From positions 1 through 56,894 of the IMG/VR virus record IMGVR_UViG_3300033144_008156: 56,894 nucleotides of DNA; one strand, 5' to 3'. The DNA is from a virus. Lineage: Duplodnaviria > Caudoviricetes. Positions 21,101 to 42,423 of this stretch are shown in pieces. The position numbers were made by a program, and so were the translations under genes. Position 1 is the stretch's first letter, and every line of letters begins with the position of its first letter. Under the pieces are notes generated by a model, which searched no databases, had not been told where the DNA came from, and saw nothing but the letters and a program-made list of their open reading frames with translations.

Positions 21101-24100
21101 TTACCATGTTGCAGAAACAGAAAAAGAGATTCAAAGATTATCTGCACAATTAGAAGGTATTAACAAATTGTATGATCCTGTCAAAGCTGCTGAGCTTGTA
21201 ATGACCAGAAAGACATACACTAAATGGTTTGAAGAAAAATACCCTAATAATCCCGGTAGTAGGGGATATATGGAACAAATCCTTAAAAGTTCTGAGCCTC
21301 CCTGGTCAATATACAAAAAATACATTGAAGAACATCCTGAATATATAGAAGATCTAGAAAAGTTAGAGAAAATAAAAGCCAGAGTAAAAGATCATAATGA
21401 GATAAAAAATAATATGATTACTACTAGAAGAGCACTAGTAATGGCAAGAAGAACCTTAAGAAGACAAACACAGGAGGCAAATATGTTAAGAGGCTCTAGG
21501 AATAGTTGGATGCATTCGCAAGATATCCTAAGCTTGTATAAAAAAGTAGGGCAAGAATACTTGAACTTGTTAAAAGAAGATAAGCAAGCGGCAATAGATG
21601 CAGAAACATTAACTGCAAACCAGAGAGCAAGTGGAAATTTACAGCCTCCACCTATTAATCCTACTCTGAAAAATTTAGAACCTTTTCTTACAGAGGCAGA
21701 GTTCGCCAAAGAAAGCTTAAGCACAACTGCAGGATTTCATATAGATAGAAACACAGGAGGAGTTAATACTAAAAGGCAATTTCAAGTCAGGTGGTATGCT
21801 GCTCTTGCTAAGATGCCTACAATAACTGATGAGGAAGGATATCATCTACAACTTTTAACTCTTAAATACGCAAAAGAAAATGGATTAGAAGAGGCATATG
21901 ATGAAGAAGATGAAAGAACAGATAGCGCAACTGCTTTAAAAGCAATTTTAGTAGATGAGGCAGGTAATCCAGTAAGGGCAACTGATGAAGGAGAATTAGA
22001 TCCTAAAGGGAATATTCTTACCACTTATATCCATAAACCAGATTTTGTATATGATTTAAGTAAAAAAAGAATAGCCAGAAAATACATGTATGAGGTAATG
22101 GGGGCCGATGAAAGTGAAACAAGGTCTCTTATAAAAAATGACGAAGCAAGAATAGGGAAGGACACTTATACTTTTGATGAAATAGTAGAAAATGCCAGGT
22201 CATATTATTCCAAAAAGCATGAAACTTTCAGAGAGAATGCTTTAGCAGAAATAGAAAAGGGAAATCCAGTATTTGTACCAATACTTGAAAAGTCTGCGGG
22301 AATTGAAAGAAACCTTCCAGAAGTAGATGGAAAAAGGCAAAGAAATAACTTAGATACATTTGCCAAATTAGACGAGATAGTATCATTCCATGTTCCTACA
22401 TCTAATATGATGGCTCTTACTTCTAATAGCCATGTCCAAAGAGAAGTTTATCCAGGAATGGTATATGTAGAAAATGAAAGAGGAAATACAACAGGAGCAT
22501 TGAATAGGCTTTTAAATGAGCAGGAAGTAGACATGATAGTAAACATGATGAGCTATGCTGCCCTTAATGGAAATGAAGTTCATAGAGAATTAACGGCTGC
22601 AGAGAAAAAGAAGAAGGGGAAAAAAGCATTAAAAACTACTTACTATTTATTTCCTAAGAAAGGAGTATCTTCAAATGATATTATTCTACCTAACTTGATA
22701 TATTATGGTAAGATAAATGAAGAAGGAATTAGAAAGTCATTATCAAAAGAAGGAGCTACAGAAGCCCAAATAAAGAATGAAATAGCTAGAAGACAAAAGC
22801 ACCAGCTATATATTAATTATCAGACAAAAACTGTTAGTTATGGCTATGAAGAAAAATCTCAAATTCCAAATTCTGTAGGGTTTACCAATATTAAAACTGA
22901 TCCTCAATTTAGAGAATGGTTACTAGGGAAATATCACCAGATCAATAGATTGAACCTTACCTCTTCAGAAAAAGGAAAGACTAACATATATCTTCACCCC
23001 ATAAAATTTAATGAAGATACTGGAGGAGTGAAAATGCAATTCTATAACCATAGTAAAAATATGGCAGGATATGAAACTTTCCTACATTCTTTATTAAAAA
23101 CAGATATTGTCCCTGCATCTGAAGTTCAATTTGCATCTACCTATTTTACATATAGTAATAAAATTTATAACAAACTAGAAGGAGAAGTATCTTCCGAAAA
23201 GGAGGAAAAGAAGGAAAAAGAAGGTGAAATCTTAGAAACAGAGCCTACAACTATAACTAACTCTAGGGATTTAATAAAAATAAAAGAAGGATATACTTTT
23301 GAAATTAATTTACATTTTCAACAACCTACAAAAGAAGATCCTAAAATTTATAAAACTTTTAATTTAAAATATCAGGGTATTTTTAAAGATGGTGAGTTTG
23401 TGTTAGAAAAACTTGAAGTAGATGAAGTAGAAAAAACAGGAGAAGTTCTTAAGAAAAATCAAGAATATCTAACTAATAGCATTATTGCGGATATAAAAGA
23501 AGTCCATCAAAAAAAGAGCAAAGGAAAAGGAGTAAAGTTAGAAGACTTCTTTAGAGATATAGGAGTAACTTCTTTTGTAATAACTCCTCCTGGGGTAACA
23601 AAAAAAACTACTACTCCGGAAATAGGAGAAGAAGAAGCAGTATCAATCGTATTAGAGGAGAGTCCTAAGTTAGCTGCTGCTATTTATAAAGAATTAGGAA
23701 TGCAGGGAGAGCAGGGGGAGATAAAAATTGCAGACATAAAAAATATAGATTTCTCCTCCGTAAATCCAGGACTAGCTAAAATTTTACAAGAAAAATTAAA
23801 GGCTAAATTTCCTAAGATTAAATTGGAATTCACAGATCTTCCTATACCTGAGTCTACAGATCCAAATATTATGAATCAAGAGATGAAGAGTTCTTTATCT
23901 GCATTTAATGAAGATCCTAAGCTAAAAAGAGAATTATTAGGACCTTTATTAAGAGCAGAAAACGCCCTCAAGTCTCTCAAAGAGAAAGATAAAATAGCTA
24001 TTAATGCTACTATGAATAAGCTTATCGCCCAAAATCCTTTGAAATACTTAGAATTAATCAGGACTACAGGAGAAAAGGGGGCCGTAATTAGAATACTTCT

Positions 24101-25946
24101 TGATCCTCTATCATCAGATATAACAAAAGAAATAGGAGATGAGATTATTCCTAAATCTATAAGGAAAAAAGCACAGGATTTTGCAGACAATATAAATAAC
24201 AAGGAAAACTATCTACAGGCCTTTAATGAGTTTATTGCTAAAAATAGAGAAAGATTATCTGAATTAGAAGATATGGAAGAGGCCATAAGGAAAAGTATGG
24301 AAAATATTTCTCTAAAAGATTATAAAAAAGGGCTTTGGAATATTTTAGTAAATACAGATATACGATTTGTTCATTATGAAATGCCTTCCATTGATGTAAC
24401 AAACCCACTTAATGTTGTAAATTTTAGATTAGAAAATAATGCAGGAGTTAAGTTTAATTTCCGTTATGAAAATGGAATTTTAAAACAAATATATAAAGTT
24501 GAAGAAAAACAAATAAAAGATTATGAAAAAATAAGAGGAGGATTTGTGGGTGATGCAGCTACTATGACTGAAATTCAAAATATACCCATAACAGAAGAGG
24601 ACCAAAATGACTGGATAGATGCTAATGTTCTATTAGAACAATTGAAAAAAGACCCTTTTAGAATAAGAGAAGCTATAAAAATCATTCATTTGGATGCTGT
24701 AAATCTTAAAATAACGCAATTAAAAAATAATCTAGAAGATCCTACCTTAAAAGAAGACTTTATAAGAGATAGAATTGATGAGACATGGGATAACATGCAA
24801 TTTAGTCACTATGATATGTTAGATGTAGATTTTCAATTATTTTTGAGAGATAATTTAATGGCAAATAATATAATTGATAATAATGATATATTAACTGCCC
24901 AGTTTGGAGTAAAACCCGATGCTCTCCTAAAATTATCTAATAATGAAGAGTATAAAGAATTAGAGCAAAAAAAGAAGAAGATTACCTACATTTTAGATAA
25001 TCAAGAAGAATTTAATAATACATATGATAGCTATGAAGCATCATTTGAAGAAGGAAACATTTTAGCTCCTGTGCCTGGATGGTTTGTAAATGCACACTCA
25101 GTAGAGAGCACTGGTAAATTTTTCCGTGATCTTAATGGTATTTTTGATGCAAGAGTTAGAACTATGGTACAAATAGGAGCTACACGAGAATATGATGCTC
25201 TCCATGATCAAGGAGTTACCCCTGGATTTCAAAAATTACTAGATGCTAAAGATATAAACTCTTTAATGCCCCAGCGATTATCTTATGCTCCCGCATTAAA
25301 TTTATCAGATGATCTTGCTATACTAAATCAAAAAGAAAAAAATCAAATAATAGGACAGGCTAATTTTGAAGCCATGTCTGTTTTAATTCACAATGCTCAT
25401 CAGCGTCAAGATACTTTACCCCATGAATATGCTCATCATTATGTGAGATGGTTTAAAGACACTGCCATAGTTCAGGAAGGTATCAAGAGATTTGGGTCAG
25501 AAGAAAATCTAGTACAGAAAATTGGAGAACAAGCAACTCTTCAAAAAGGAGAAGCTTGGAATATTTGGAAAAAACTTGTTAATTGGATATTAGAACAGTT
25601 ATCAGATAAACAATTGTTACAGGTGCTTACTGATAGTTTCTTAGAAGCTGTTGATCTTAATGATCATTTTACATATGGAGATCCTACTGCTGCTCAGAAA
25701 AAGGAGGCCCAGAATCTATACAGTGACTATAGGAGTACTACTAAAGTAGAAGCAGGGTCTAAAAAAGATATAGAAGGATTTGGAGAATTTGTAGGAAAAT
25801 CGAAAGTAAGCTCTTCTGAATCTGTAGGATTTGAAGGTTTAGGAACTGGAATGACTGCTGCAGAGACAGAATCAGTTAATAAAATGAATGAAGATGGAGA
25901 AAATGAAAGTGCAGGCAATAATAATTCTACTAAAGAATGCAATTAA
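18132..25946 (+). CDS. Giant virion protein 1 with hydrophobic N-terminal segments, coiled coils and a C-terminal zincin-like metallopeptidase motif
   Basis: 2604 aa. Has Gly/Ala-rich hydrophobic helices, SEGFEEGYQ, and TLPHEYAHHY...EENLVQ (HExxH...E) near 25420; lies upstream of the RNAP gene. Confidence 0.75.
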   Translation: MPTLPEDTINPLTGKPVGQKASLKNTAVIGQEDINPLTGLTVGKKGSFTYNPSVGDFAVPATAAHDFNFKATDDLYQFTKYGADVNILTDYTKHRAIMQPGWEQTLAFLNQAIIGEIGGGMIESVGYLLDAVMMGDLAKGQEQEFGNMMSRTGKHIKEWTKEVTPAYEVAPGTFNPGDSGWWASNGPSVFSTLSLMIPAMGFTKAAGMAARGLGLARAAKKGTGVYQKAVGLKPLTVAQEAKIGWVGGAVSQAVMSRHAESLMESSQIFDQNYKKYRQEGLGDKEARELAGKGASKVYKDNWWMLLTDLPQYLMLGAKFTPGGGKVAKAVNDAANKKIVSVPYTGMNTGARFTLGMASEGFEEGYQHVIGEEGTYLSDLQGGFTEESAFADRYDQYIRDGRLWTSVFYGAFGGGIFQAAMPKVQDFINKKQGIPTQDEIIDQKIKIINEMMPALSAATKRVKEADASGIVGMMYQARTNLNLYKALQHIATGTFDQHLAFLDHLENMSEEEVAEWNEANPDVQFDKAVLDELMPELREASHEINNIYQEESKRQKPELAIRTTEELYKISKFKKDAAKYELAVSELEEQYLQKEKLSPVGQELYDVKLQKAAYLQAKKQIEYLLKNDSVAPDARDIYNERMDNFAAAVMILEKQEKELESKERTAAEKKEDARVFDTMKNLDPLNEKKAQLDMLNLAIDTANQRLKRLRDPRTSATGDQRVAERAWTTTQVEEKLKAHSPNSLQKARLGKRVGEGNEVTMKIAGKTISGIVTYPVKKKDIEAARIHLGLGIEKETAEKMKPAPLGYIFISHDNKIIRIIHGDNIDSLNILDREAQAAEANRQEQAEIMAKRRESLIRVHNALKTDIEGLQNKINENKEKIEFSLLELEELASDLQAIDKTTPGYKKKERDYYRKKYGKTPQQWKKEYREKDIREKRDVLQSELNTLLNYYKEINLEGAQNAETAIRKANLHSPYSPLALTEIEKLLETADYHVAETEKEIQRLSAQLEGINKLYDPVKAAELVMTRKTYTKWFEEKYPNNPGSRGYMEQILKSSEPPWSIYKKYIEEHPEYIEDLEKLEKIKARVKDHNEIKNNMITTRRALVMARRTLRRQTQEANMLRGSRNSWMHSQDILSLYKKVGQEYLNLLKEDKQAAIDAETLTANQRASGNLQPPPINPTLKNLEPFLTEAEFAKESLSTTAGFHIDRNTGGVNTKRQFQVRWYAALAKMPTITDEEGYHLQLLTLKYAKENGLEEAYDEEDERTDSATALKAILVDEAGNPVRATDEGELDPKGNILTTYIHKPDFVYDLSKKRIARKYMYEVMGADESETRSLIKNDEARIGKDTYTFDEIVENARSYYSKKHETFRENALAEIEKGNPVFVPILEKSAGIERNLPEVDGKRQRNNLDTFAKLDEIVSFHVPTSNMMALTSNSHVQREVYPGMVYVENERGNTTGALNRLLNEQEVDMIVNMMSYAALNGNEVHRELTAAEKKKKGKKALKTTYYLFPKKGVSSNDIILPNLIYYGKINEEGIRKSLSKEGATEAQIKNEIARRQKHQLYINYQTKTVSYGYEEKSQIPNSVGFTNIKTDPQFREWLLGKYHQINRLNLTSSEKGKTNIYLHPIKFNEDTGGVKMQFYNHSKNMAGYETFLHSLLKTDIVPASEVQFASTYFTYSNKIYNKLEGEVSSEKEEKKEKEGEILETEPTTITNSRDLIKIKEGYTFEINLHFQQPTKEDPKIYKTFNLKYQGIFKDGEFVLEKLEVDEVEKTGEVLKKNQEYLTNSIIADIKEVHQKKSKGKGVKLEDFFRDIGVTSFVITPPGVTKKTTTPEIGEEEAVSIVLEESPKLAAAIYKELGMQGEQGEIKIADIKNIDFSSVNPGLAKILQEKLKAKFPKIKLEFTDLPIPESTDPNIMNQEMKSSLSAFNEDPKLKRELLGPLLRAENALKSLKEKDKIAINATMNKLIAQNPLKYLELIRTTGEKGAVIRILLDPLSSDITKEIGDEIIPKSIRKKAQDFADNINNKENYLQAFNEFIAKNRERLSELEDMEEAIRKSMENISLKDYKKGLWNILVNTDIRFVHYEMPSIDVTNPLNVVNFRLENNAGVKFNFRYENGILKQIYKVEEKQIKDYEKIRGGFVGDAATMTEIQNIPITEEDQNDWIDANVLLEQLKKDPFRIREAIKIIHLDAVNLKITQLKNNLEDPTLKEDFIRDRIDETWDNMQFSHYDMLDVDFQLFLRDNLMANNIIDNNDILTAQFGVKPDALLKLSNNEEYKELEQKKKKITYILDNQEEFNNTYDSYEASFEEGNILAPVPGWFVNAHSVESTGKFFRDLNGIFDARVRTMVQIGATREYDALHDQGVTPGFQKLLDAKDINSLMPQRLSYAPALNLSDDLAILNQKEKNQIIGQANFEAMSVLIHNAHQRQDTLPHEYAHHYVRWFKDTAIVQEGIKRFGSEENLVQKIGEQATLQKGEAWNIWKKLVNWILEQLSDKQLLQVLTDSFLEAVDLNDHFTYGDPTAAQKKEAQNLYSDYRSTTKVEAGSKKDIEGFGEFVGKSKVSSSESVGFEGLGTGMTAAETESVNKMNEDGENESAGNNNSTKECN

Positions 25947-25952
25947 TGTAAT

Positions 25953-28900
25953 ATGGGATGTATAAGATACATAATTCCAAAAGTAGGTCCCAAAAGAGGA
26001 CAGAGTGTAGAGTCTCAATTATTTAACAACTTAGTTAAGATGTATGATGAGACTACTGCAGATGAGCTTTACGGAAATATATTTACAGAAAAATTTAAAA
26101 GAGTTTTTGGAGATTGGGAAACACATAAAGAGGAATGGAAAGACCAGTTAGATCAGAATGGAGAGCCCCTTACTAGGTTTATAACTCCCGTGGGGGAAGA
26201 AAATTTTGAGGCTACAATAAATCCAGAAGCTTATTATGTACCAAAAGTAGCAGAAACTCCACAAATCACTGCTGCGAAAGAATGGTTAACAAAGCATTTA
26301 GGAAATACTCCAGGAGTAGTAGCTGTATCTAGAATTATAGAAGGACAATTAATAGGAAGATTTCATCAGGGATCTATCTATTTAATGAATAATGCAGAAA
26401 TGGGAGTAGTATTCCATGAAGCATTCCATGCCGTTACTCAAATGTTCCTAACAAGCGGAGAAAGAAGGTCTATTTATGATGAAATTAGAAGAAGATCCCC
26501 TGAAAATGAAAAACTTTCTGAAGAAGAGGTAGAAGAAATCCTAGCAGATGAATTTAGTGAATACATAATGTCTGGAGGAAAATACATAGTACCAGAAGCT
26601 AAGAAAAAACAAAAGTCACTTTTTAAAGAATTATGGGATACCATAATAGGTATATTCTATAATAATGAAATCTCAATAGCAGAGTTATACGAAAAAGCAA
26701 GAACTGGTAAATATGCCAAAGGAATTGGTCTATCTCGAAGAGCAGAAAACTTCTTCAATAAATATGAAATGAAGTCTTATGGGAAGAAAGTGAGCATAGA
26801 TAGAACATTAAAGGACGGTTCCAGAACTCCATTAACATCCACAGAGATAAGAATGTTAATGGAAAGTATGAATTATTATTTCTTGGATACACTATTTAGA
26901 CAAGGTAGCCCAGATGCACTATTCAATAAAACTGCAAGTGAAATATCTGATATTTATTCCAGTAAGTCTGATGGAGTATTTGGAAGAATGAAAGGCCAAT
27001 TAATGCAGGATCTAAGGCAAAAAGATTTTGTAAAAAACTTAGCAAAACAGTCTGGAGAGACAGTAGAAGATTTAACATTTAAGTTACAAAGTATTTATCA
27101 GTCTGTAGGTCTTTATAGTGGAGAACCCACTCAGGAATGGAATAGACTAGCTGCTGCTCATAAAAGCTATTTAAGGCAGTATGGGCTGGATTTAAAGTTA
27201 GAGTATGTAAAAGAAGATGATCGTACAAAAGAAGAATTAATACAAGAAGGACTTGCAGAAGTAGATGCGGGAAATTTCTTTGTAGAATCTATCTATTTCA
27301 ATACTAAAGACAGTACTCCTAACGCTGTAAAAATGTTAATAGCAGGGTTAGCAAAAAAAATATCCTCTCAGGACTATGTTGTAAATGACCTAGGATTAAG
27401 AATAGCAGTCAATTATGATGAAACTTATAATACAGTAGCAAATAAACTAGCTTTAACTCCTGCCAGATGGGAAGCTTTTGAAAGAAAATTAAACGAATTA
27501 AAACACGATATTCCAGGAATGGGATGGTTAGCCCAGAGATTAAGAGTGGGAGAATCTTCTGCAGAAGTCAGCAAAGACATATTTGACCTAAGGATTAAAT
27601 TCATACAAAACTTTGCAAAAAACAAATACTCTTATCTGATAGGATTAATACAAAGAGATACAGTAGATGACCAACGAAACCTAGTTCCTGGGGATATTAT
27701 ATTTCAAGATAGTAATTCTAGTGGTACTAAAGACAGAATAAGACAAGAATGGAGAGGAAATCTCATTAGGAATTTTGCAGAAATAAGTGGAACAGGAAAA
27801 ATTGCAAAAGAATTAACTGCACAAAACTGGAAGACTCTACTAGGAGAAATAAAGACAATTTTAGCAAAGTATCATAATGAAAAATCAGTCCGAAAGAAAA
27901 AAGAACTCTTAAATTCAGCATATGCAAGGTTAGGAATAGAATTAAATCCAGTTACCGCAGATCTGATGCTAACTGATGTGAATAAAGGAGGAGGAATAAC
28001 TAGTGAAGAAGGAACTGTTAGTAGTGCATTTGATGTGCTGAACAATAGTATATTAAAGTATTTAGAAGAAGAAGTAGACCTGTTCTCTCCAAAATCTGGA
28101 GTAGCAGGGTGGATAAGCGGCCTAATCAGTATGGAAGCAGAACACAATAAAGATAGAATCTCTTCCCAGCACATAAGTCCAGATGGCAAAACGATGTATG
28201 GAATAACATTAAATACCAATACTTCTATTGTAGTATCAGAATTAAACAGCATAGCCGCTCTTCCTACTGAAAGTGACAGATTAGATGCTCTTGAAGAACA
28301 TTTACCACATATATTTCACTCAGAATATGCTACCCATAGTATAATAAAAGATAAAATATTGGAAGGAATTCCAATTACATTAGGAATATTCGATGGATAC
28401 AAATATAATTTACCTGGAAACCAGGGAATCCCCACTAAAGAACTAAAAGAGCCTGATAAGTACTCTCAATTTGTAAATGGCACTCTCAAAGAATTTTATT
28501 CTTTTTTAAGAACTGCAGATAGAGGAATAGAAAACTTTATATCTTTTTCAGATAAAAGTGCATTTATAAAAAACCAAGAAGAGGCTTTAATCAATTTTAA
28601 GTACTACTTATTAGATGAGATTATTACAGCAAAAGATTTAAAAGAAGGCGGGGCTGGTAAATATATTTCTTCTTATAGAGATATGTTTAAAAATAATGAA
28701 ACTGGATTAAGAATTTTCAATGGAATAATTAAAGATTCCAGAGTAAGAAATGATATAAAAGCATATATCAATAAAGAAGATATTACAAGAGAAGATATAG
28801 AAGAGGCTCTTTTTGAAGAAGGGTCTGTTTTTTCAACTAGAGTTACCGATGATATTTTAGATTATTTTAAAAGAAGGGTAAAAATAGAAGGAGATAAATT

Positions 28901-31900
28901 ACGGGCTTTGGGAATTTATGATATCACAACTAATTATGATGATTCTGTTACAGTAAAGATACCTGGGCTATCTGCAGATGCTTTAGAAGGTATAACTACA
29001 GGAAATAGAGAATCACAACTTTTAGTAATTGAAGAGGCCCTTAATAAATATGTATGGAATTCTACAGCTGCTTATATAGAGCAGACAAAAATATTCTTTG
29101 GAGACCTTCAATACTTTGGATCAGCAGACAATGTATTTAAAAGAGCTGCTATGTTTAATTCTACAAAAAAGATATCTGTAACAGGAAAAGACTTTGAGGC
29201 AGGAATGAATGTTCATTATCCCAGAAAGGATGGTAAAAAAACTAATAGAAGATATATTACAACAGTAATATTTGAAGATGTAGAGGTAGAATCCTCTTAT
29301 TTGGAATATTTGGAGCAGATATTTACAGACGAGCTGCTGCAAAGAGCAAATTCAGAAGGGACCAAAGTATTTACTACTGATGGGAAAACTCTTAATGGAA
29401 AAGGTAAGATAATATTAAATAGTAAACTACTTCCTTACAGAGAAATGACAGAAGCAGATGGAATGGGATACATTTCTATGGATGAGTATAGAGAACTCAG
29501 GGTGATTGCAGGAGAATGGCTACCAGAGCACGAAAAGGTCTATCAAAAAATAATGGCGGGAGAAACCTTAAAAGTAAATGATGTCTATTACTTACAGCCT
29601 CTAAAAACTCAATATACAGGGCCTTTAATAGAAAGTTCCTTAACCGGAAATTTAGCTAAAGCAGGATTAAATGTACCTACAGGTTATAAGCATGCATTAA
29701 TTCCTTTAATTCCTAGCATGTTTAAAAAAGGACATGTTATGAATAAATTAGCAGAGGAAATGCAAAAACCAGAAAATCAATGGGGAATAGCCCAGTTTAG
29801 AAGTGGAAATAAATTTGGAACTGCAGTAGATTCCAGCACAGGGGAAGCTAATTCCTTTTATAAGGAAACAGTAGTGGGCGGGAAGTCTTTATGGGAAATA
29901 AATACTAAAAATTTAACTACACAAACTATAGATTATAAATATTTTGGAGTCCAGCAAGAAATCTCTTCTAAGGTTAAAAGAGATGGGACCGTAGGTACTC
30001 AACAAAGAGTACTTATACAGTCTAATCTTTATGTAAATGGTAAAATAGCTCCCGGAGTTTCCCTGGAATTAGAGGAAGCAACAAAAAGATATGACAAAGT
30101 TCAGAGTATGATAATTGACAAAGAACTAAAGAATTTTATGGATAAAATGTCCATAACAAAAGTGCAAACTCCTTTTGGTGATGAGCTTAAAATAACTGAC
30201 GGCACTAAATTTGTAGATTTCCTAATTAGAGAGGCAGAGAGTAGGAATTCCTCTGATAATGTTCTTGATTCTATTGTTGCCCTTAATATATTTGGACTTG
30301 ATGGACAATCTCAAGGGGTAGATAAATTAGATACTATAATAGCACAGAATAAAATAGAAAATCTTTTAATGGCCCTGGTTAATAACAATATAATTAGGGA
30401 AATGAGAATAGGAGGATCGAAAGTTCAAGTAGCTTCTACAGGATTTGAATATACAGCCCGTAGTAAAAGTGGAAAATACTATGGGTCTAATGAGCTTGAA
30501 TTTTACAGCGAAAAAGATGGGACTTTTCGTGCAATGGAGATAATGATACCAGCTCCTCATAGTTTACTTAAGCATTATGGGTCAGTAGATAATCTTAATA
30601 AAGCTTTAGAAGCTGGAGAATTAGATAACATTAAGCGTTTATTAGGGTACCGTATTCCTACTCAATTAATGAGTTCTATTGATTACTTAACAATTAAGAA
30701 ATTTTTACCTACCGAAGCTGGAGATATAATAGTACTACCTACAGAAGTAGTAGCAAAATCAGGATCTGATTATGATATTGATAAGATGAGTATTTTTATG
30801 CTAGACTTCCATATTGTAAAAGGAAAAGTTGTTCCGATAACAGGAGAAGGATTAAGAGGATTGAAAAATGAAATGTTAGATCTCTCTTTGCAAATTATAG
30901 CTGATAGATATAATAGAAGTCAGCTCCTTTCTCCCATAAGTGATGCATTACTAATAGGACAATCTATTTCTCTTGTAAATGATGTTAGAGAATTAAAAGG
31001 TAAAGGAAAACAAGTTATTAGTTGGACTGAAGTAGCAGAGGGATTAACCAACATGGAAAGATATAAATATTTCATGGCTGGTAAAGGAGGAGTAGGCCAG
31101 GTAGCAGTTCACGAAGTAAATCATGTTACTACTCAAAAAGCTGGAGTATACATAAAAGACAATAAACTTACTTTATTTTTTGATCATAACGAAATTGAAA
31201 TAAATGAGGCTAAATATCCTTCTCTAGCAGGTATAACTGATGTTACAGGGAATTGGGAAATATTGGATACATTATCTGCCTTTATGAATGCCTATGTAGA
31301 TATAGCCAAAGATCCCTACATATTTGATTTAAATGCAGGAACTGAAGTAGCTAATACTATCTTTTATATGCTGAGATTAGGAGCAGATCCTCAATGGTTA
31401 GCTAGATTTGCTACCCAACCCTCTATCGAGAACTATATTACAGAAAGAGCTGTTCAAACTTCTGAGTTTAATAAAAGAACAGGGTCAGTAGAGAGTAGGT
31501 CAGATACATTTGAAAGAGTTATTGCCGAATTAAGAATTGGAAGTGGGGCTAGTCTTAGAACAGGATTTTCAGATACCATAGTATCTTCTCAAGAGAAAAT
31601 AGAAAGTATATTAGTTGCTAATACTGATACTGTAACTTCTGGACAACAAGAAAATGAAATAGAAAGGTTAGAGAGTGATATAAGAAAGAGAAAAGAAATG
31701 TATAAAACTCCTTCCTTTGAGGAATTAGGAAAAATGGTAGGAAAAACTACTTTTAGTAGTACTGCAGAGAAAGATATGCAAATTCAAGTACTAGATAATT
31801 TCTTGGAATATAAAAGACAGTCCAAATACTTGCAAAAATTAATAAGGGCCACTTCTCCTTCTACAAGAGGAGTACGAAAAAATCTAAATGAATTGTCCTA

Positions 31901-32948
31901 TTCTTTAAAAGAAAAAGAAGAGAGTTTAGAAACAGATAACTTCTTTGGTAATGTAGAGAAAATATTTGAAGAGGGCTTTAATGGGGCTTTTCAACGAGTA
32001 TTAGATACCACCTATGAAACCTATTCTCCCCTAACCATTTCTCACTTAGAACATATCAGGCCTCACCTGGATAGAATGAAAACAGATATAGGGAAAGCCT
32101 GGGTAGGAAATCCTAGCCAGCAACAAAAGGTGAGAGAAGCCATAGACAGTGAATTTCAAAGATATGTTATACTAACAGCACATCTTAATGGGAAATCATT
32201 AGGAATAAATATAGCAAATAATTATAATAGACTATTTGAAAAAGAGAATTTAAAAAATACCATAAAACAACTACAATCTCTAAGAAAGACAGGTAATTTA
32301 AAGGACAATTTAGTTATAAAAAATCTTCTTCCTATTCTTGAGAATGAAAAGCAGGATAATATAAAGATGTTCAATAGTAGGTTAAGAACGGAAGAGGAAA
32401 ATCAATATATTGAAGCTTTTGAAGAAATAGTGGAACAGGACCCTGCACTAGCAAGAGATTTGGCAATGATATCAATAATACAATCTGGTAAAGTAGCTTC
32501 TCCTATTTCTTTCACTAAAATAATTCCCAATCACTTATATAGATCGCTGACAAAAGAGGCCATTGATAGTATAGCAAAACAAGAATATATGCCTAATATG
32601 GGCCAGTTTGAAGATCAATTCTATAGAAATAATCCTCAATTAGTACCTTTAGCTACTAAAATGGGAGCAGGTTGGAAAATGTCTTATTCTCCCTACGATA
32701 TAAGAGCTAAACTACTATATTTGAGGACTATAAATTATCAATCTGAGGACCCTTCTAATATGTTCACCCTAGTTAGAAGACAAGATAGTCTAACAGAAAG
32801 TGGAGAAGTAACTTTTGGAGAAGATATAACAAGAGACATTTTAGGAGATGGAAGATGGCTTCATGATTACAGGTCAGGAGATAATCTAACTCCGACAGGA
32901 ATTACAAAAAAAGAAAAAGACGAGAATAAGAGAAAATGTCCTGAATAA
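25953..32948 (+). CDS. Virion-packaged single-chain double-psi-beta-barrel RNA polymerase (phi14:2 gp66-like) with an N-terminal zincin domain
   Basis: 2331 aa. Catalytic GSDYDIDK (DYDID at 30768-30782), GYRIPTQ, EADGMGY and YVDIAKDP; N-terminal VFHEAFH...EEILADEF. Confidence 0.9.
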   Translation: MGCIRYIIPKVGPKRGQSVESQLFNNLVKMYDETTADELYGNIFTEKFKRVFGDWETHKEEWKDQLDQNGEPLTRFITPVGEENFEATINPEAYYVPKVAETPQITAAKEWLTKHLGNTPGVVAVSRIIEGQLIGRFHQGSIYLMNNAEMGVVFHEAFHAVTQMFLTSGERRSIYDEIRRRSPENEKLSEEEVEEILADEFSEYIMSGGKYIVPEAKKKQKSLFKELWDTIIGIFYNNEISIAELYEKARTGKYAKGIGLSRRAENFFNKYEMKSYGKKVSIDRTLKDGSRTPLTSTEIRMLMESMNYYFLDTLFRQGSPDALFNKTASEISDIYSSKSDGVFGRMKGQLMQDLRQKDFVKNLAKQSGETVEDLTFKLQSIYQSVGLYSGEPTQEWNRLAAAHKSYLRQYGLDLKLEYVKEDDRTKEELIQEGLAEVDAGNFFVESIYFNTKDSTPNAVKMLIAGLAKKISSQDYVVNDLGLRIAVNYDETYNTVANKLALTPARWEAFERKLNELKHDIPGMGWLAQRLRVGESSAEVSKDIFDLRIKFIQNFAKNKYSYLIGLIQRDTVDDQRNLVPGDIIFQDSNSSGTKDRIRQEWRGNLIRNFAEISGTGKIAKELTAQNWKTLLGEIKTILAKYHNEKSVRKKKELLNSAYARLGIELNPVTADLMLTDVNKGGGITSEEGTVSSAFDVLNNSILKYLEEEVDLFSPKSGVAGWISGLISMEAEHNKDRISSQHISPDGKTMYGITLNTNTSIVVSELNSIAALPTESDRLDALEEHLPHIFHSEYATHSIIKDKILEGIPITLGIFDGYKYNLPGNQGIPTKELKEPDKYSQFVNGTLKEFYSFLRTADRGIENFISFSDKSAFIKNQEEALINFKYYLLDEIITAKDLKEGGAGKYISSYRDMFKNNETGLRIFNGIIKDSRVRNDIKAYINKEDITREDIEEALFEEGSVFSTRVTDDILDYFKRRVKIEGDKLRALGIYDITTNYDDSVTVKIPGLSADALEGITTGNRESQLLVIEEALNKYVWNSTAAYIEQTKIFFGDLQYFGSADNVFKRAAMFNSTKKISVTGKDFEAGMNVHYPRKDGKKTNRRYITTVIFEDVEVESSYLEYLEQIFTDELLQRANSEGTKVFTTDGKTLNGKGKIILNSKLLPYREMTEADGMGYISMDEYRELRVIAGEWLPEHEKVYQKIMAGETLKVNDVYYLQPLKTQYTGPLIESSLTGNLAKAGLNVPTGYKHALIPLIPSMFKKGHVMNKLAEEMQKPENQWGIAQFRSGNKFGTAVDSSTGEANSFYKETVVGGKSLWEINTKNLTTQTIDYKYFGVQQEISSKVKRDGTVGTQQRVLIQSNLYVNGKIAPGVSLELEEATKRYDKVQSMIIDKELKNFMDKMSITKVQTPFGDELKITDGTKFVDFLIREAESRNSSDNVLDSIVALNIFGLDGQSQGVDKLDTIIAQNKIENLLMALVNNNIIREMRIGGSKVQVASTGFEYTARSKSGKYYGSNELEFYSEKDGTFRAMEIMIPAPHSLLKHYGSVDNLNKALEAGELDNIKRLLGYRIPTQLMSSIDYLTIKKFLPTEAGDIIVLPTEVVAKSGSDYDIDKMSIFMLDFHIVKGKVVPITGEGLRGLKNEMLDLSLQIIADRYNRSQLLSPISDALLIGQSISLVNDVRELKGKGKQVISWTEVAEGLTNMERYKYFMAGKGGVGQVAVHEVNHVTTQKAGVYIKDNKLTLFFDHNEIEINEAKYPSLAGITDVTGNWEILDTLSAFMNAYVDIAKDPYIFDLNAGTEVANTIFYMLRLGADPQWLARFATQPSIENYITERAVQTSEFNKRTGSVESRSDTFERVIAELRIGSGASLRTGFSDTIVSSQEKIESILVANTDTVTSGQQENEIERLESDIRKRKEMYKTPSFEELGKMVGKTTFSSTAEKDMQIQVLDNFLEYKRQSKYLQKLIRATSPSTRGVRKNLNELSYSLKEKEESLETDNFFGNVEKIFEEGFNGAFQRVLDTTYETYSPLTISHLEHIRPHLDRMKTDIGKAWVGNPSQQQKVREAIDSEFQRYVILTAHLNGKSLGINIANNYNRLFEKENLKNTIKQLQSLRKTGNLKDNLVIKNLLPILENEKQDNIKMFNSRLRTEEENQYIEAFEEIVEQDPALARDLAMISIIQSGKVASPISFTKIIPNHLYRSLTKEAIDSIAKQEYMPNMGQFEDQFYRNNPQLVPLATKMGAGWKMSYSPYDIRAKLLYLRTINYQSEDPSNMFTLVRRQDSLTESGEVTFGEDITRDILGDGRWLHDYRSGDNLTPTGITKKEKDENKRKCPE

Positions 32949-32959
32949 ACTAAGATAAT

Positions 32960-35900
32960 ATGGCAATTTGTCCCAATAAAAATTTAAAAGAGTGGAAGAT
33001 CCTTGTTAAGAATCACGGAAGTGATCAAGCATTAGAGATCTGGATGAAGCTTAATAAAGATAAAAAAGAGAGTGAACCTGAGATATTTCCAGAAATACCT
33101 TTAGCAGAAAGAGATTCCTTTGTAGAAAATAAAGGAAGTACTCAAGAAGAGGTACTCAATAAACTAAACGAGACTAAAAAGGAAATATTAGAAGAAAAAG
33201 AACTAAAATGGGAAGTTCCTAAGAAAGGACATTCTCTTAGTAAAGTAAGAAAAGGATCAAAACTTGAAGTAGAAAGATATATAAGAGTAGTGCCTGAAAC
33301 AGGAGAACGGAAAATAGTAACAGGGAGAGTTACTGATGTTCAAGATATATTATTTAGAAATAACAGGAGTAGACAAGAAGCAGATGAGATTAATAATAGG
33401 CCTAAAAATAAGATACTTGCCAGAAGAGGAACAGACCTGCATGCAGTGTCTCAGGATATAACAGAATCTCTAAAGAAAAAGGAGAAGCCTGTCAAACCTG
33501 ATTGGCTAACCAATAGGGCATTTGAAACTCTAGAATATGGAGTTACAAAGGTAGCGAGAGATATAAAAGCTGTTCAAAATACCATAGATAGAGATGGTAA
33601 TACTACTGTATTAACCGAAGTTTCTGTGTATGATCCTTATAAAGACAAGGCAGGATCCATAGATGTAGTTGCTATTTTTAGTGATGGAAGTGTAGCTATC
33701 TATGATTATAAATTTGTAAATTTTTATCAAGCAAATGGAAAGGTAATAGACTATGAAGATAAGTTGGACATGAAAGAAGAGTCCTGGGATATGCAGATAG
33801 GGGAATATAAAAGGATCTTAAGAGATGTATATGGAGTAGATTTAGTAAGAAGATCTAGAGTAATTCCTGCTAATGTACAATATAAATATGAACAGAGGGG
33901 AACAGGAGTTGAAATGACAGATACAGTTCATAAATTAGAAATGGGAAATGAGGAGTATACTGCCCCTGTTCCTTTAGCTGATGAACTCTCAGATGATAGA
34001 AAGCTTAATCGACTTTTAGAAAAGCTTTTTGTTCTTTCCAAAAATTTAAAAACTGCCACTAAAGGATCTAGAAATAGAATGGCAGCAATAGCCAGTAAAA
34101 GAAGGGTACAAGAAGCTATTAAAGCAATACAGCTAAAAAAAGATTTTACCTTTCTAGTTAATGAAATAAATGCAATAAATACTGAAATACAAACAGGAGT
34201 ATCTATAAATGATATGAATGATCCTCTTTATTTAAGTGCTCCTCAATTAAAATTCTACAAAGATTCTTTATCAGTATACAAAACTCTTTCTGAAACTTCT
34301 AAAAATGCTATATTAAATAACAAAGAATTAACAGATAAAGAAAAAGAAGAATTAATTAATGCTGCAAATAATGCGGCAGGAGTAGCTACTCTGGCCATTG
34401 AGCTTTTATACGACAAGCAAAAAGAAAGAGTATCTGCGGAGGCAGAGAAAAAAGGCATCAAAAATATATTTTCCCTACAAAAAGAAACCAGTGGAGGATT
34501 TTTAGTTACTGGAAATAAAGGAAAATATTTTAGTGACTGGACTCATCCTATATTTAGATTGGCTAAGAAAGAAATTGATACTGAGGTAATTGATTTTACT
34601 CGGCATAAAGTTCAAGAAGTAGAGGAGAATTTAGGGAGGCTGACTAATAATTTAATGAAATGGGGAAAAGCAAATGGATATAAAGGATTAGATGTATACA
34701 ATCCATTAATAAATCCTAAAACTAGTAATCTAGTAACAGAATTTACACCTGAACTTTGGGAGAAAAGAAACGAAGCCATAGAGCAGAAAGACATTACCTG
34801 GTTAAAAAATAACTTCCATCAATCTAAAGAAAATAAAGAAGAATACGATAAGGCTAAAAAAAATCAAGTAAGATGGATAAATCAAGCTCATAGGAATAAA
34901 AGTGAAGATTGGAGAAAAAAAGCTCTTAAATGGTGGGAAATAAAAAATAACCCTGAGCACGAAGAAGCGTGGTATAATCCATATACAAGATTGACACTTA
35001 CAAATCCTGATAAGTGGAGATCTTCTGAATATAATTTCATAGTAAAAAATAAACCATTAAAAGAGTACTATGATTATTATTCTACTTTAATGAAAGAACT
35101 TAGTGCCATTTTTCCTGATAAAAACTTAAAAAAGAATTTTGTACCCTGGATTCATAAAAATATGGTTGATACTCTTGCAGAAAATGGAATGAATGCAGGC
35201 CTATTTAAAGGAGGGGCAATTGGAGCTACTATAGGGACACTTGCTCTCCCAGGGGCCGGAACATTATTAGGAGGAGCAATAGGGTCATTTTTAGGCAGTA
35301 AAGGAAATGTAGAAAGTTTTTTACAATCACTAGAAGTAAGAGAGGATGACATGACTTTTGGGATGACTAATACTCTTACTGGAGAAAAAGAACCTAGTAT
35401 TCCTATCTTATACACAAACCCATTAACTGATAAAACAGGAGCAGTAAATAAAAATTTAAAGTCTAAAGATCTCTCTAAAAGCCTCGCAGTATTCGCTAAT
35501 ATGGCGTATAACTACCAAGGAGTATCTAAAATAGAAGATATAATGCTGACTTTAAAAGAGGTACTTTCTAAGCAAGATCAGATCCTAGTAAACGACTATG
35601 GTAAAGTAATAGAGTTTGAGGGTCAAATTAAGAGAGGGAAACCGAAAGTAGATAAAACACTGGAAAGTTTTGACATGTACTTAAAAGATTACATCTATGG
35701 GGTTAATATACAGAGTAATGATTTTGTGCGTAAAATAGGAAGTAAAAATTATAGCGGAACTAAGATAGTAAAAGAAACCATGAGATTCTTTGGGCTAAAA
35801 ACTTTAGGATTAAGTATAGCATCAGGATTTGGGGCTTTTGTAGGAGCAACTGCAAATATGTACATGGCAGCAGAAAAGAAATTTTGGTTTGATAGAAAAC

Positions 35901-37189
35901 AAATTAATGCTGCTAAGAGAGCTTTTCTTCACGGAGATGGTAAAGCTCACGCCTTTTTTGAGCTTTTAGAGTCTACTCATGAGGATGTTAGAGCACGAAA
36001 AGCAGATTATCTTTCTGTAAGTAGAATGTCAAAAACATTTAGTAATCATCACGCTTACATACTTCTAACAAAAGCGGATAGAAACATAGATGCAAATGTG
36101 ACTGTAGGAATGATGATGAATTATGGATTAGATCCTAATTATCAAGGAAAACCCAGAATAAGAAGACTAAAATTAATACATAAAAAAAATAAAAAAGCAA
36201 AGTCTTTATGGGAAATGGGGAAAATGGATAAAAATAAAAATGCAGTAATGCCTAAAGAAATTACTACAGAATTATTAGATCAATTTAGAAGAGAAGTAAT
36301 GTATGCTGCCTCCACAATTAAAGGGCAATATTCTACAGAAGATAAAATGCTAGCCAATTTAACTCTTGAAGGGCAAGCTATTATGCAATTTAAAAACTGG
36401 ATGCCCAGGCTTATATCAGAAAGATTTAGGACAGCAAGATATTTAGAAGATTTTGAAGCAATAGAATTAGGTAGATTCAGAGTAATAATGGGAGAACTCC
36501 TTAAAAAAGGAACTTTACCTGCCCTAAAAGCCTTTATGGGTATGTTTTCAGAAATAGCAAGTATGGGACTATTTAAGCATACTTTATCTGGAGAAGCCAG
36601 TAAAAGATATTTTGAAGAATTTCTTGCTAATAATCCTGACATACAACAACAAATAAGTAGAAAAGAACTAGACTATAATGAATTTTTCGAGCAATATAAA
36701 GAACAAAGAGTAGGGCAGATGAGAGCATTTGCAATGGAATTAAGAATGTACTTAATGATAGTTTCTGCAATGGCTATTGCAGGAGGAGATTGGGATGATG
36801 ATGGAAAAGCTCTTTACAAAGATATACCAGGAGGAGAACAGGCTTTAAAACTTATGAAAAAAGCATCCATGGAATTAGGGTTTCTATTCAGACCTTCAGA
36901 AGCAAAATATCTGATATCTAACCCTATCCCTGTTATAAAAATATTATTTGAGTTAGAAAACCTAATAGAAAATAGTTTAGATGAAACCAGGGACTGGATA
37001 ATGCAAGATGATTATAAAGGATTTATTTTCATGGAAAAAGATTCCTATGATAGAAGCCCTCCTTTTAAATACACTTCTAAATTTATACCAGTATGGAAAC
37101 CTGCTGCAGAGTTCTTTGATTTCTTTGAACCTTCTGGGGAAGTAAAAGGAAAAACAAAACTAGAAGCAGTATTCGGAAAAGAACAATAA
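32960..37189 (+). CDS. Giant virion protein 3 with a PD-(D/E)xK nuclease-like domain and a glycine zipper
   Basis: 1409 aa. Shows RGTDLH...E...AGSIDVV...IYDYKF...QIGEYKRIL, GGAIGATIGTLALPGAGTLLGGAIGSFLG and MQFKNWMP. Confidence 0.75.
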   Translation: MAICPNKNLKEWKILVKNHGSDQALEIWMKLNKDKKESEPEIFPEIPLAERDSFVENKGSTQEEVLNKLNETKKEILEEKELKWEVPKKGHSLSKVRKGSKLEVERYIRVVPETGERKIVTGRVTDVQDILFRNNRSRQEADEINNRPKNKILARRGTDLHAVSQDITESLKKKEKPVKPDWLTNRAFETLEYGVTKVARDIKAVQNTIDRDGNTTVLTEVSVYDPYKDKAGSIDVVAIFSDGSVAIYDYKFVNFYQANGKVIDYEDKLDMKEESWDMQIGEYKRILRDVYGVDLVRRSRVIPANVQYKYEQRGTGVEMTDTVHKLEMGNEEYTAPVPLADELSDDRKLNRLLEKLFVLSKNLKTATKGSRNRMAAIASKRRVQEAIKAIQLKKDFTFLVNEINAINTEIQTGVSINDMNDPLYLSAPQLKFYKDSLSVYKTLSETSKNAILNNKELTDKEKEELINAANNAAGVATLAIELLYDKQKERVSAEAEKKGIKNIFSLQKETSGGFLVTGNKGKYFSDWTHPIFRLAKKEIDTEVIDFTRHKVQEVEENLGRLTNNLMKWGKANGYKGLDVYNPLINPKTSNLVTEFTPELWEKRNEAIEQKDITWLKNNFHQSKENKEEYDKAKKNQVRWINQAHRNKSEDWRKKALKWWEIKNNPEHEEAWYNPYTRLTLTNPDKWRSSEYNFIVKNKPLKEYYDYYSTLMKELSAIFPDKNLKKNFVPWIHKNMVDTLAENGMNAGLFKGGAIGATIGTLALPGAGTLLGGAIGSFLGSKGNVESFLQSLEVREDDMTFGMTNTLTGEKEPSIPILYTNPLTDKTGAVNKNLKSKDLSKSLAVFANMAYNYQGVSKIEDIMLTLKEVLSKQDQILVNDYGKVIEFEGQIKRGKPKVDKTLESFDMYLKDYIYGVNIQSNDFVRKIGSKNYSGTKIVKETMRFFGLKTLGLSIASGFGAFVGATANMYMAAEKKFWFDRKQINAAKRAFLHGDGKAHAFFELLESTHEDVRARKADYLSVSRMSKTFSNHHAYILLTKADRNIDANVTVGMMMNYGLDPNYQGKPRIRRLKLIHKKNKKAKSLWEMGKMDKNKNAVMPKEITTELLDQFRREVMYAASTIKGQYSTEDKMLANLTLEGQAIMQFKNWMPRLISERFRTARYLEDFEAIELGRFRVIMGELLKKGTLPALKAFMGMFSEIASMGLFKHTLSGEASKRYFEEFLANNPDIQQQISRKELDYNEFFEQYKEQRVGQMRAFAMELRMYLMIVSAMAIAGGDWDDDGKALYKDIPGGEQALKLMKKASMELGFLFRPSEAKYLISNPIPVIKILFELENLIENSLDETRDWIMQDDYKGFIFMEKDSYDRSPPFKYTSKFIPVWKPAAEFFDFFEPSGEVKGKTKLEAVFGKEQ

Positions 37190-42412: not shown

Positions 42413-42423
42413 AATTACTTATT

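Follow-up and report, generated by a model that had tools for sequence, protein, structure and literature searches.

Why should the only cysteines of three giant, consecutively encoded phage proteins all stand where the end of one product faces the start of the next? This question is raised by a 56,894-nucleotide stretch of viral DNA (IMG/VR record IMGVR_UViG_3300033144_008156; hereafter the window, meaning the whole stretch that was analysed), in which three giant open reading frames (ORFs) follow one another on the plus strand. The first-pass annotation of this DNA had suggested that the three products are ejected from the virion as a chain held together, in order, by disulfides or metal bridges between the C terminus of one protein and the N terminus of the next. 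The suggestion bears on a wider problem, as the window belongs to the crassviruses, which are more abundant in the human gut than any other phages. How the ~700 kDa of RNA-polymerase proteins of these phages pass through the tail, and in which order, is described as an open question (PMC13434306; PMC10172136, in part).

Four cysteines at the inner ends of three giant proteins

Chain member 1 (2604 aa; 18132..25946, plus strand) has one cysteine, the penultimate residue 2603 of a sequence ending in KECN (codon TGC, 25938..25940). Member 2, which is identified below by homology as a virion RNA polymerase (RNAP; 2331 aa; 25953..32948, plus strand), has two, at residue 3 (MGC; codon TGT, 25959..25961) and at residue 2329, third from the end (KCPE; codon TGT, 32937..32939), and both are conserved in homologues. 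Member 3 (1409 aa; 32960..37189, plus strand) has one, at residue 4 (MAIC; codon TGT, 32969..32971), which is conserved in its family. The span 25938-32971 given in the first-pass annotation begins with the first of these four codons and closes with the fourth.

Translation of the window bore out the cysteine positions on which that annotation was built. There are four cysteines in 6344 residues, all at the head-to-tail junctions and none internal; the outer ends of the trio (the N terminus of member 1 and the C terminus of member 3) have none; and two upstream ORFs on the plus strand, of 683 aa (13619..15670) and 816 aa (15682..18132), are cysteine-free. Across the window's 19 minus-strand ORFs the cysteine frequency is 1.60%, from which about 102 cysteines would be expected per 6344 residues, compared to the 4 observed. 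If cysteines were placed uniformly, these four would all land at precisely the inner ends, within the first 8 or last 10 residues, with a probability of 6e-10. The genes are separated by 6 and 11 nt at the two junctions, and short repeats lie beside both.

Identity of the module and its neighbourhood

The window is placed in Crassvirales by a gene for the crassvirus muzzle protein (2029..8334, plus strand), which matched Pfam family PF25731 (crAss_MUZ) with an E value of 2e-137. The cysteine-free 683-aa and 816-aa ORFs stand at the position of crassvirus cargo proteins, the former comparable to PhiCrAss001 gp45/gp46 (PMC10172136, in part), and the three giant ORFs come after the genes for the muzzle and the cargo, in the late-module gene order.

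Member 2 was found to be homologous to the family of phi14:2 gp66 and PhiCrAss001 gp50: blastp gave E values of 8e-26 with phi14:2 g066 and 2e-25 with PhiCrAss001 gp50, comparison with the solved gp66 structure (PDB 6VR4) gave 6.7e-27, and tblastn found matches in 111 phage records, all of them crAss-like by name. The catalytic motif DYDID (residues 1606-1610, with D1606/D1608/D1610; 30768..30782, plus strand) occupies columns that are invariant in 38 sequences. This DxDxD motif (DFDID-type), the homology and the late-module location together point to membership in the crassvirus virion RNAP family. The N-terminal part of member 1 (residues 5-430) is homologous to QAU03812 of CrAssphage ZA (blastp, 1e-26), a Carjivirus protein described as 'RNAP-associated protein fused to zincin protease', and member 1 has the same position as PhiCrAss001 gp47 and phi14:2 g067. 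A PD-(D/E)XK-like region lies around residues 149-270 of member 3, which has the same position as PhiCrAss001 gp49 and phi14:2 g065. Searches of Pfam gave no family for the three giant proteins or the upstream cargo ORFs, and PHROGs likewise gave none for these proteins except for two weak matches on member 3. By homology and gene order, we identify the three ORFs as the RNA-polymerase module of a crassvirus. Among the other products of the window are ThiF-like and JAB-like proteins.

In an AF2 model of member 3, Cys4 lies in coil before a confident two-helix module (residues 1-30, pLDDT 85-96), and residues 38-131 form a low-confidence stretch. The AF2 model of the RNAP tail was poor (mean pLDDT 52.7), and co-folding of RNAP residues 2132-2331, supplied with an alignment, and residues 1-320 of member 3 gave no answer (score 0.20, mark 0.32).

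Conservation and pairing of the terminal cysteines in relatives

A cysteine 0-6 residues from the C terminus was found in all 38 RNAP homologues compared (22-86% identity), and 25 of the 38 have a cysteine at residue 3-5; the total number of cysteines is three or fewer in 32. All 16 members of the member 3 family (the window's own counted) have exactly one cysteine, at residue 3-6. When 66 C-terminal tails of 150 aa and the 66 N termini that follow them (250 aa) were aligned, the mean column identity was 10% in both alignments and the sole invariant column in each was the cysteine. Neither a conserved His nor a second conserved Cys was found near the terminal cysteine in these 66-sequence alignments. 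Lys is enriched beside the C-terminal cysteine, with 41% at the +1 position versus a background of 9.3%.

Relatives were found by an alignment-based scan of IMG/VR, and 80 of the 481 confirmed relatives, representing 44 clusters at 50% RNAP-core identity, were surveyed. A search of IMG/VR for close relatives with a single protein found none. Among 172 adjacent pairs of ORFs of at least 500 aa, a count that spans related loci and not independent events, 115 had cysteines on both sides of the junction and 53 had none on either; a cysteine confined to the downstream side was found in 4 pairs, and one confined to the upstream side in 0. The first-pass annotation had named a lack of pairwise conservation in relatives as one result that would refute its proposal, and the proposal survived this check. 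Three of the four downstream-only cases involve Cys-rich proteins located past the end of the chain, and in the fourth (locus L051) the upstream cysteine is present, 17 residues from the end. A locus with two giant ORFs and no junction cysteines (L029) was considered as an exception and rejected, as it holds one fused gene with a frameshift. The coupling of the two sides of the junction is established by these counts.

In the 188 chain members of the survey, 230 of the 263 cysteines are terminal, and the internal cysteine frequency is 0.0072%, as opposed to 1.29% in 110 neighbouring control ORFs, 15-17% of which have a cysteine in the same end windows. The cysteine of an upstream product stands 0-7 residues before the C terminus, in rare cases 17 or 49, and that of a downstream product at residue 3-6. 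The outer ends are nearly always free of cysteine: of 59 first members with a complete 5′ end, 55 have no N-terminal cysteine, and the other 4 start no more than 666 nt from a contig edge, so that an upstream partner may have been cut off; similarly, 57 of 59 complete last members have no C-terminal cysteine, and after the remaining 2 either a small link ORF or the locus end comes next. The intergenic gap exceeds 100 nt in 10 of 109 pairs, with a maximum of 1837 nt. As relatives with as little as about 20% identity share the arrangement, it is neither a chance event nor a quirk of this record.

Fusion, fission and link proteins

The junction cysteine pair is absent when member 1 and the RNAP are encoded in one ORF, where the catalytic motif lies 2888-3865 residues in, and present when they are split, where the motif lies 1336-2521 residues in. 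In a Carjivirus it is the RNAP/member 3 junction that is fused and without cysteine, and the remaining junction retains its pair. Loss of the pair upon fusion is, then, an observed property of the module. There were at least 7 changes between the split and fused states on a tree of the RNAP core on which the labels were set by presence of the N-terminal cysteine; an independent criterion, how far into the ORF the catalytic motif lies, gave the same two classes in the 37 complete chains.

Further splitting adds cysteine pairs, and four-member chains exist. In the gap between the RNAP and member 3, we found seven small ORFs of 165-396 aa with exactly two cysteines each, the first at residue 3-4 and the second 0-2 residues before the C terminus. 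This two-cysteine layout occurs in 7 of 50 plus-strand small ORFs versus 0 of 123 minus-strand ones; one of the link ORFs (in L067) lies at the end of its locus, and no member 3 was seen there. Judged by these gene structures, the module evolves like a single unit of about 4,700-8,200 residues, divided into 2-5 products at lineage-specific sites.

The module in named and cultured phages

The same layout is present in PhiCrAss001 (gp47/gp50/gp49), phi14:2 (g067/g066/g065) and a Carjivirus. In PhiCrAss001, the sole cysteine of gp47 is residue 2339 of 2341, gp50 has cysteines at 5, 1334 and 2404 of 2412, and the sole cysteine of gp49 is residue 5; gp47 is encoded on the strand opposite to gp50-gp49. 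The three PhiCrAss001 proteins have masses of 262.5, 276.9 and 154.5 kDa, together about 694 kDa (PMC10172136, in part). In phi14:2, the sole cysteine of g067 is its last residue, 1797, g066 has cysteines at 3 and 2179 of 2180, and the sole cysteine of g065 is residue 3. One chain member of IAS virus is also on the other strand. The RNAP of IAS virus has 10 cysteines, and the cr272_1 members of 6386 aa and 2281 aa have 39 and 21 in all, of which only one in each is terminal. The C-terminal cysteine of cr273_1 is 49 residues from the end; this distance, and that of 17 residues in L051, would make longer stubs at the joints. CrAssphage was represented in the comparison by CrAssphage ZA, whose cargo-like protein QAU03814 has a sole, penultimate cysteine and is followed by a protein that lacks an N-terminal cysteine.

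The proteins of the module have been detected in virions of PhiCrAss001 (PMC10172136, in part) and phi14:2, the only two phages for which packaging and delivery to the host are known, and phi14:2 gp66 transcribes the early genes (bioRxiv 10.1101/2020.03.07.982082, in part). Recombinant phi14:2 gp66 was purified and assayed in DTT and was active (same preprint, in part); therefore, its cysteines are dispensable for catalysis. PhiCrAss001 virions were reported to have disulfides in the tail and at the portal vertex, and both reduced and non-reduced virions were analysed by mass spectrometry (PMC10172136, in part). The available text of that paper, extended-data tables aside, reports no reduction-sensitive species of gp47, gp49 or gp50, and the words cysteine and disulfide do not occur in the phi14:2 preprint, which proposes protease cleavage for fused RNAP forms (bioRxiv 10.1101/2020.03.07.982082). 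Terminal cysteines or a link among the three proteins are not mentioned in the available text of either report, and a literature search for terminal cysteines of crassvirus RNAP-module proteins, which covered material other than the supplementary and extended-data tables of PMC10172136 (disulfide list, MS table), found no mention. Crassvirus virion RNAPs and Cys-poor ejection proteins are known; we found no paper on the pairing of terminal cysteines.

Discussion

The results, all of them comparative, support head-to-tail pairing in the order that the first-pass annotation had proposed. We infer the covalent bond (a disulfide, as opposed to a metal bridge), its timing, the order of threading and release by reduction. 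In the reading towards which we lean, a redox-cleavable head-to-tail disulfide chain would replace a polyprotein of about 5-8 thousand residues, to be threaded through the tail and released by reduction. Each C-terminal cysteine would be bonded in the virion to the N-terminal cysteine of the next product (the bonds predicted for the window are C2603-C3 and C2329-C4), giving one unbranched, co-linear N-to-C chain with very short stubs at the joints. Such a chain would be pulled through the tail as if it were one unfolded polypeptide, in fixed order and at a ratio of 1:1:1, and the host cytoplasm would reduce the joints to give free subunits. We propose that the purge of internal cysteines keeps the pairing specific. 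If a peptide bond and a terminal cysteine pair are interchangeable in evolution, this would account for the varied split sites and the 2-5 pieces per lineage. We put at about even the chance that the module acts in full as a disulfide-stitched polyprotein, threaded N-to-C through the tail as one polymer, with the host cytoplasm instead of a protease cutting the joints.

What counts against a disulfide is that virions are assembled in a reducing cytoplasm and that most of the hosts live in the anoxic gut; the many internal cysteines of cr272_1 and IAS virus also count against it because they would blur specific pairing, as do the longer stubs of cr273_1 and L051, the lone cysteine of QAU03814 and the lack, in the text covered, of a reported reduction-sensitive species in PhiCrAss001 virions. 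In an anoxic habitat oxidation would be unnecessary if the proteins were paired through a bridging metal ion or some other thiol-dependent contact, and the junction-coupling data fit such a contact equally well. We consider it improbable because there is one conserved cysteine per end, with no His, Asp or second Cys conserved within 150-250 residues, and because, by established coordination chemistry, two thiolates alone would not bind the metals common in structural sites with good specificity. A disulfide chain might instead serve co-packaging, fixed stoichiometry or capsid stability, with the joints opening before or without passage through the tail. The pairing evidence would be identical, a capsid-targeting signal would then be needed on one member alone, and the order of ejection is not addressed by these data. 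However, the cysteines are nearly always at the extreme ends (N-terminal residue 3-6; 0-7 residues from the C-terminal end), as a threadable unbranched joint demands and mere tethering does not, and disulfides are unlikely to form in the cytoplasm prior to assembly, so that a role restricted to co-packaging seems rather unlikely to us.

If the terminal cysteines bound another target (the portal, the capsid interior, another copy of the same protein or a host factor), the pairing would be indirect. The lone penultimate cysteine of QAU03814, which has no partner on the next protein, would fit this explanation, as would the structural disulfides elsewhere in the crAss001 virion, which make other cysteines available (PMC10172136, in part). 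It leaves unexplained the lack of cysteine at the outer ends, the joint loss of both cysteines upon fusion and the layout of one cysteine per end in all inserted link proteins, and we regard it as quite improbable. That the cysteines are used for protein ligation, by intein-like trans-splicing or enzymatic joining into a true polyprotein, we think very unlikely. Cysteines are splicing nucleophiles, relatives have fused polyprotein forms, and the ThiF-like and JAB-like proteins of the window would suit such a scheme; intein-like splicing was rejected because no flank is conserved besides the cysteine and the three proteins have no Pfam match, and with the N-terminal cysteine at residue 3-6 rather than 1, an S-to-N shift would require prior trimming. 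The pattern might also be a by-product: termini free of constraint may simply tolerate cysteine, or nucleotide signals at the gene junctions may impose it, and in the window the genes are 6 and 11 nt apart, with short repeats beside the junctions. An origin in nucleotide signals was rejected, as the pattern holds in pairs up to 1837 nt apart and in those encoded on opposite strands. Inner ends have a cysteine in nearly 100% of cases and outer ends, edge cases aside, in 0%, relative to 15-17% of control ORFs. This contrast and the status of the cysteine as the sole invariant column of the terminal alignments make any by-product explanation extremely improbable.

A disulfide chain, if true, would give phages their first example of a covalently concatenated ejection cargo, with the order and ratio of delivery fixed, and it would explain why fused and split versions of the genes exist side by side. 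Avoidance of cysteine, the known rule for ejection proteins, would be refined to avoidance except where a link is wanted. Such a chain would also be a natural design for ordered, stoichiometric and self-releasing protein delivery, and it would provide a rule for annotating cargo-chain members, their order and their true starts in metagenomic crassvirus genomes.

Comparison with known systems

The modules of PhiCrAss001 and phi14:2 have a homologous RNAP, the same module position and the same terminal-cysteine layout as the window, although the identity is only about 24-26%. Further afield, in the AB toxins (diphtheria toxin and the clostridial neurotoxins), an unfolded enzyme chain crosses a membrane by way of a narrow channel while disulfide-linked to its partner, and reduction in the cytosol frees the enzyme. 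The two chains come from one cleaved precursor and are joined by one bond; we know of no head-to-tail concatenation of separate gene products in these toxins and of no homology to the crassvirus module. The capsid disulfides of polyoma- and papillomaviruses are likewise formed in the virion and undone on entry, during uncoating, but these are eukaryotic viruses and the bonds join capsid subunits, not delivered cargo.

The ejection proteins of the Schitoviridae (N4 gp50, DEV gp71-73), giant virion RNAPs together with their partners, are envelope-crossing and almost cysteine-free, which has been attributed to passage via a periplasm that catalyses disulfide formation (PMC11445570, in part). The statement in the first-pass annotation that N4-type virion RNAPs lack cysteine is in print (PMC11445570, in part). 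Near-absence of cysteine is common to the Schitoviridae and the crassvirus module, but in the former the suppression is total and includes the termini (0.00075% cysteine in gp71 homologues; PMC11445570, in part), whereas crassviruses retain one cysteine per inner end. In addition, the Schitoviridae RNAP is one polypeptide, as opposed to the multi-protein module of crassviruses, and the two differ in polymerase fold family (PMC13434306).

The fused crassvirus module has the same domains in the same order as the split forms, and fusion unites exactly those ends that are Cys-paired when split. Its joint is a peptide bond without cysteine, and its release would need a protease, whereas that of the split forms would need reduction.

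Gene content of the window and identity of the RNA polymerase

The 56.9-kb window record was judged to be 58% complete. Along the plus strand lie, in order, the gene for a crassvirus muzzle protein (PF25731, E = 2e-137), a 1718-aa ORF (8463-13619) that has only two cysteines, at residues 167 and 172, and for which no Pfam or PHROG family was found, two cysteine-free "cargo" ORFs of 683 and 816 aa (13619-15670 and 15682-18132), and three giant ORFs of 2604, 2331 and 1409 aa (18132-25946, 25953-32948 and 32960-37189), referred to here as members 1 to 3 of a chain. The replication genes (UDG, ThiF, DnaB, SNF2-type helicase and family A DNA polymerase) are on the minus strand. Also on the minus strand, at 41735-43647, a ThiF-family protein (E = 1.2e-14) adjoins a weak Prok-JAB match (E = 3e-4), an E1-like/JAB pair of the kind seen in other crassviruses, and a 291-aa protein at 53690-54565 with 19 cysteines, mostly as CxxC pairs (Pfam C1_1, E = 4e-8), is probably a multi-zinc-ribbon protein.

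Homology identifies the 2331-aa protein as the virion RNA polymerase (RNAP) of crassviruses. It matched the solved structure of phi14:2 gp66 (6VR4) with an E value of 6.7e-27, 111 crAss-like phage records match it at less than 60% identity, and its DYDID catalytic motif occupies residues 1606-1610. The RNAP shares the reading frame of member 1, with only TAA TGT AAT preceding its ATG (25944-25955), and the frame of member 3 differs from this common frame. Member 3 contains a PD-(D/E)XK-like region (33404-33769, residues ~149-270) in which G157, H161, E220, D225, D235, D242, D249 and K251 are invariant in 15 family members; the PHROG exonuclease match to this region was weak (phrog_298, E = 3.7e-5). 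Such a nuclease-like domain, if delivered, would be of interest in its own right.

Cysteine positions in the window and in homologues

The first-pass annotation had placed all four cysteines of the three giant proteins at the inner junctions, and re-counting gave the same layout: 4 cysteines in 6344 residues, at residue 2603 of 2604 in member 1, residues 3 and 2329 of 2331 in the RNAP, and residue 4 in member 3, with none at the outer ends. At the 1.60% cysteine frequency of the window's other genes about 102 would be expected, and the probability of the observed layout of four, assuming uniform placement, is p = 6e-10.

It was found that a cysteine lying 0-6 residues from the C-terminus is shared by all 38 RNAP homologues (22-86% identity); 25 of them also carry a cysteine at residue 3-5, and the total is no more than three in 32. 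The member 3 family has its sole cysteine at residue 3-6 in 16/16 proteins, including that of the window. Homologues of member 1 are modular and fewer (n = 11), with cysteine at the C-terminus only in four, at both ends in two, at the N-terminus only in three, and at neither in two.

In phi14:2, the only cysteine of g067 is its last residue, g066 has Cys 3 and 2179 of 2180, and the only cysteine of g065 is residue 3. In PhiCrAss001, gp47 has its only cysteine at the third position from the end and gp49 at residue 5, and gp50 combines Cys 5 and Cys 2404 of 2412 with one internal cysteine; gp50 and gp49 are on one strand and gp47 on the opposite strand. The pattern also fits the Suoliviridae cr118_1, cr115_1 and cr272_1, the Intestiviridae Carjivirus (CrAssphage ZA), and IAS virus. 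It is weaker in cr272_1 and IAS virus, which have more internal cysteines, and in cr273_1, where the C-terminal cysteine is 49 residues from the end. The terminal-cysteine observation is real and strongly non-random, and its conservation extends across the order.

Two side observations were made in these genomes. A CrAssphage ZA protein at the cargo position (QAU03814; L088, 5270-7657) has a lone penultimate cysteine with no obvious partner, the next protein being cysteine-free. The giant late genes of cr115_1, cr272_1 and cr273_1 (L087, L090, L091) contain 36-80 in-frame TAG and zero in-frame TAA or TGA codons, in keeping with a recoded TAG in these lineages.

Survey of junctions in IMG/VR loci

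We retrieved 80 IMG/VR loci with an RNAP-homologue alignment; they were the best of 481 confirmed relatives and formed 44 clusters at 50% core identity. ORFs were called from the first ATG, the analysis covered plus-strand ORFs ≥500 aa long, and junction cysteines were scored in the last 10 aa upstream and the first 8 aa downstream. Among 172 adjacent pairs in these best 80 loci, 115 had both cysteines, none had only the upstream one, four had only the downstream one, and 53 had neither; the loci are mutually related, so these are not counts of independent events. Three of the downstream-only pairs involve cysteine-rich proteins past the chain end, and in the fourth (locus L051) the upstream cysteine is 17 residues from the end. 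The 53 cysteine-free pairs are mostly cargo-type ORFs preceding the chain.

In the 188 chain members of these best 80 of 481 loci (461,467 residues), 230 of 263 cysteines are terminal, and the internal cysteine frequency is 0.0072% versus 1.29% in 110 control ORFs of the same loci, where the same end windows hold cysteine in 17/110 (N-terminal) and 19/110 (C-terminal). At the outer ends, an N-terminal cysteine was found in 4/59 first members, all starting at contig edges, and a C-terminal one in 2/59 last members, after which comes a small link ORF or the locus end. When 66 RNAP tails and the 66 following N-termini were aligned, the cysteine was the sole invariant column (mean identity 10%).

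Fusion, fission and putative additional links

Complete chains total 4685-8185 residues, and the spacing between their breaks and the catalytic motif varies. ORFs that combine member 1 with the RNAP lack cysteine at the former junction, whereas the pair is present when each has an ORF of its own; in Carjivirus the other junction is fused instead and the first pair is kept. Split and fused states switch at least 7 times on the RNAP-core FastTree, the deep branches of which are uncertain. Additional breaks come with additional cysteine pairs, and four-member chains were found.

Seven small ORFs of 165-396 aa occupy the gap downstream of the RNAP gene. Each encodes exactly two cysteines, one at residue 3-4 and the other 0-2 residues before the end. 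Six of these ORFs lie between the RNAP gene and member 3 (L006, 7703-8275; L011, 8673-9368; L060, 14436-14954; L068, 17905-19095; L069, 21893-22390; L070, 14440-14949), and the locus of the seventh (L067, 14446-14955) ends before any member 3. The two-ended pattern occurred in 0/123 minus-strand small ORFs. The small two-cysteine proteins resemble further links in the chain.

Other interruptions were also seen. Inserted ORFs of 197-229 aa between chain genes (L015, 12361-13050; L068, 19147-19740) lack the terminal pattern and, from N-termini judged by eye, resemble GIY-YIG homing endonucleases. In CrAssphage cr108_1 (L004, NC_055878), a group I intron (22345-22663; Rfam RF00028, 80 bits, E = 9.6e-21) lies inside the RNAP gene, with the annotated CDS gp54 on one side of it and gp53 on the other; because the intron splits this gene, the two are probably one fused member 1/RNAP protein. 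A reading-frame shift at ~10560-10600 of L029 breaks a fused member 1/RNAP gene and reflects either an error in sequencing or programmed frameshifting.

Interpretation of the terminal cysteines

A cause at the nucleotide level is excluded by the location of one member on the opposite strand in crAss001 and IAS virus, by a spacing of paired genes that reaches 1837 nt, and by conservation of the residue and not its surroundings. Mere tolerance of cysteine at termini is excluded by the presence of the residue at nearly all inner ends and its absence from outer ones. As for intein-like chemistry, no conserved flank adjoins the terminal cysteine. A catalytic role is unlikely because phi14:2 gp66 is active in DTT, according to the text of bioRxiv 10.1101/2020.03.07.982082.

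The claim of the first-pass annotation that the ends pair head to tail is well supported by this comparative evidence, namely the junction counts and the tracking of fusion and fission. In the proposed arrangement, every C-terminal cysteine would pair with the N-terminal cysteine of the following product, a disulfide being the simplest link requiring one residue per side. As the cysteines are only a few residues away from the extreme ends, the result would be an unbranched N-to-C chain, threadable like one polypeptide, and cytoplasmic reduction would free the subunits. Lysine is enriched adjoining the C-terminal cysteine, which may favour a reactive thiolate. The purge of other cysteines fits a need for specific pairing, and also the idea, put forward in the text of PMC11445570, that ejection proteins avoid cysteine because they cross the periplasm; disulfides elsewhere in the crAss001 virion are documented in the text of PMC10172136. 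That the link is a disulfide and that it serves ejection is a well-motivated hypothesis, the main weakness of which is the timing of oxidation, as these phages assemble in a reducing cytoplasm and their habitat is often the anoxic gut. Structure predictions contribute little: Cys4 of member 3 lies in an initial coil followed by a confident two-helix module and a low-confidence stretch, and the RNAP tail was poorly modeled.

Comparison with known systems

The crassvirus RNAP module, to which the chain proteins belong, is known, and so is cysteine suppression in Schitoviridae ejected proteins (PMC11445570). Fused polyprotein forms and their presumed protease cleavage are discussed in bioRxiv 10.1101/2020.03.07.982082. 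Conserved terminal cysteine pairs or a disulfide-linked cargo chain were not found in full-text searches of the literature or in passages of the key papers. Interchain disulfides occur in translocated AB toxins, and redox-sensitive disulfides occur in the capsids of some animal viruses; these are the nearest functional analogues of the proposed chain.
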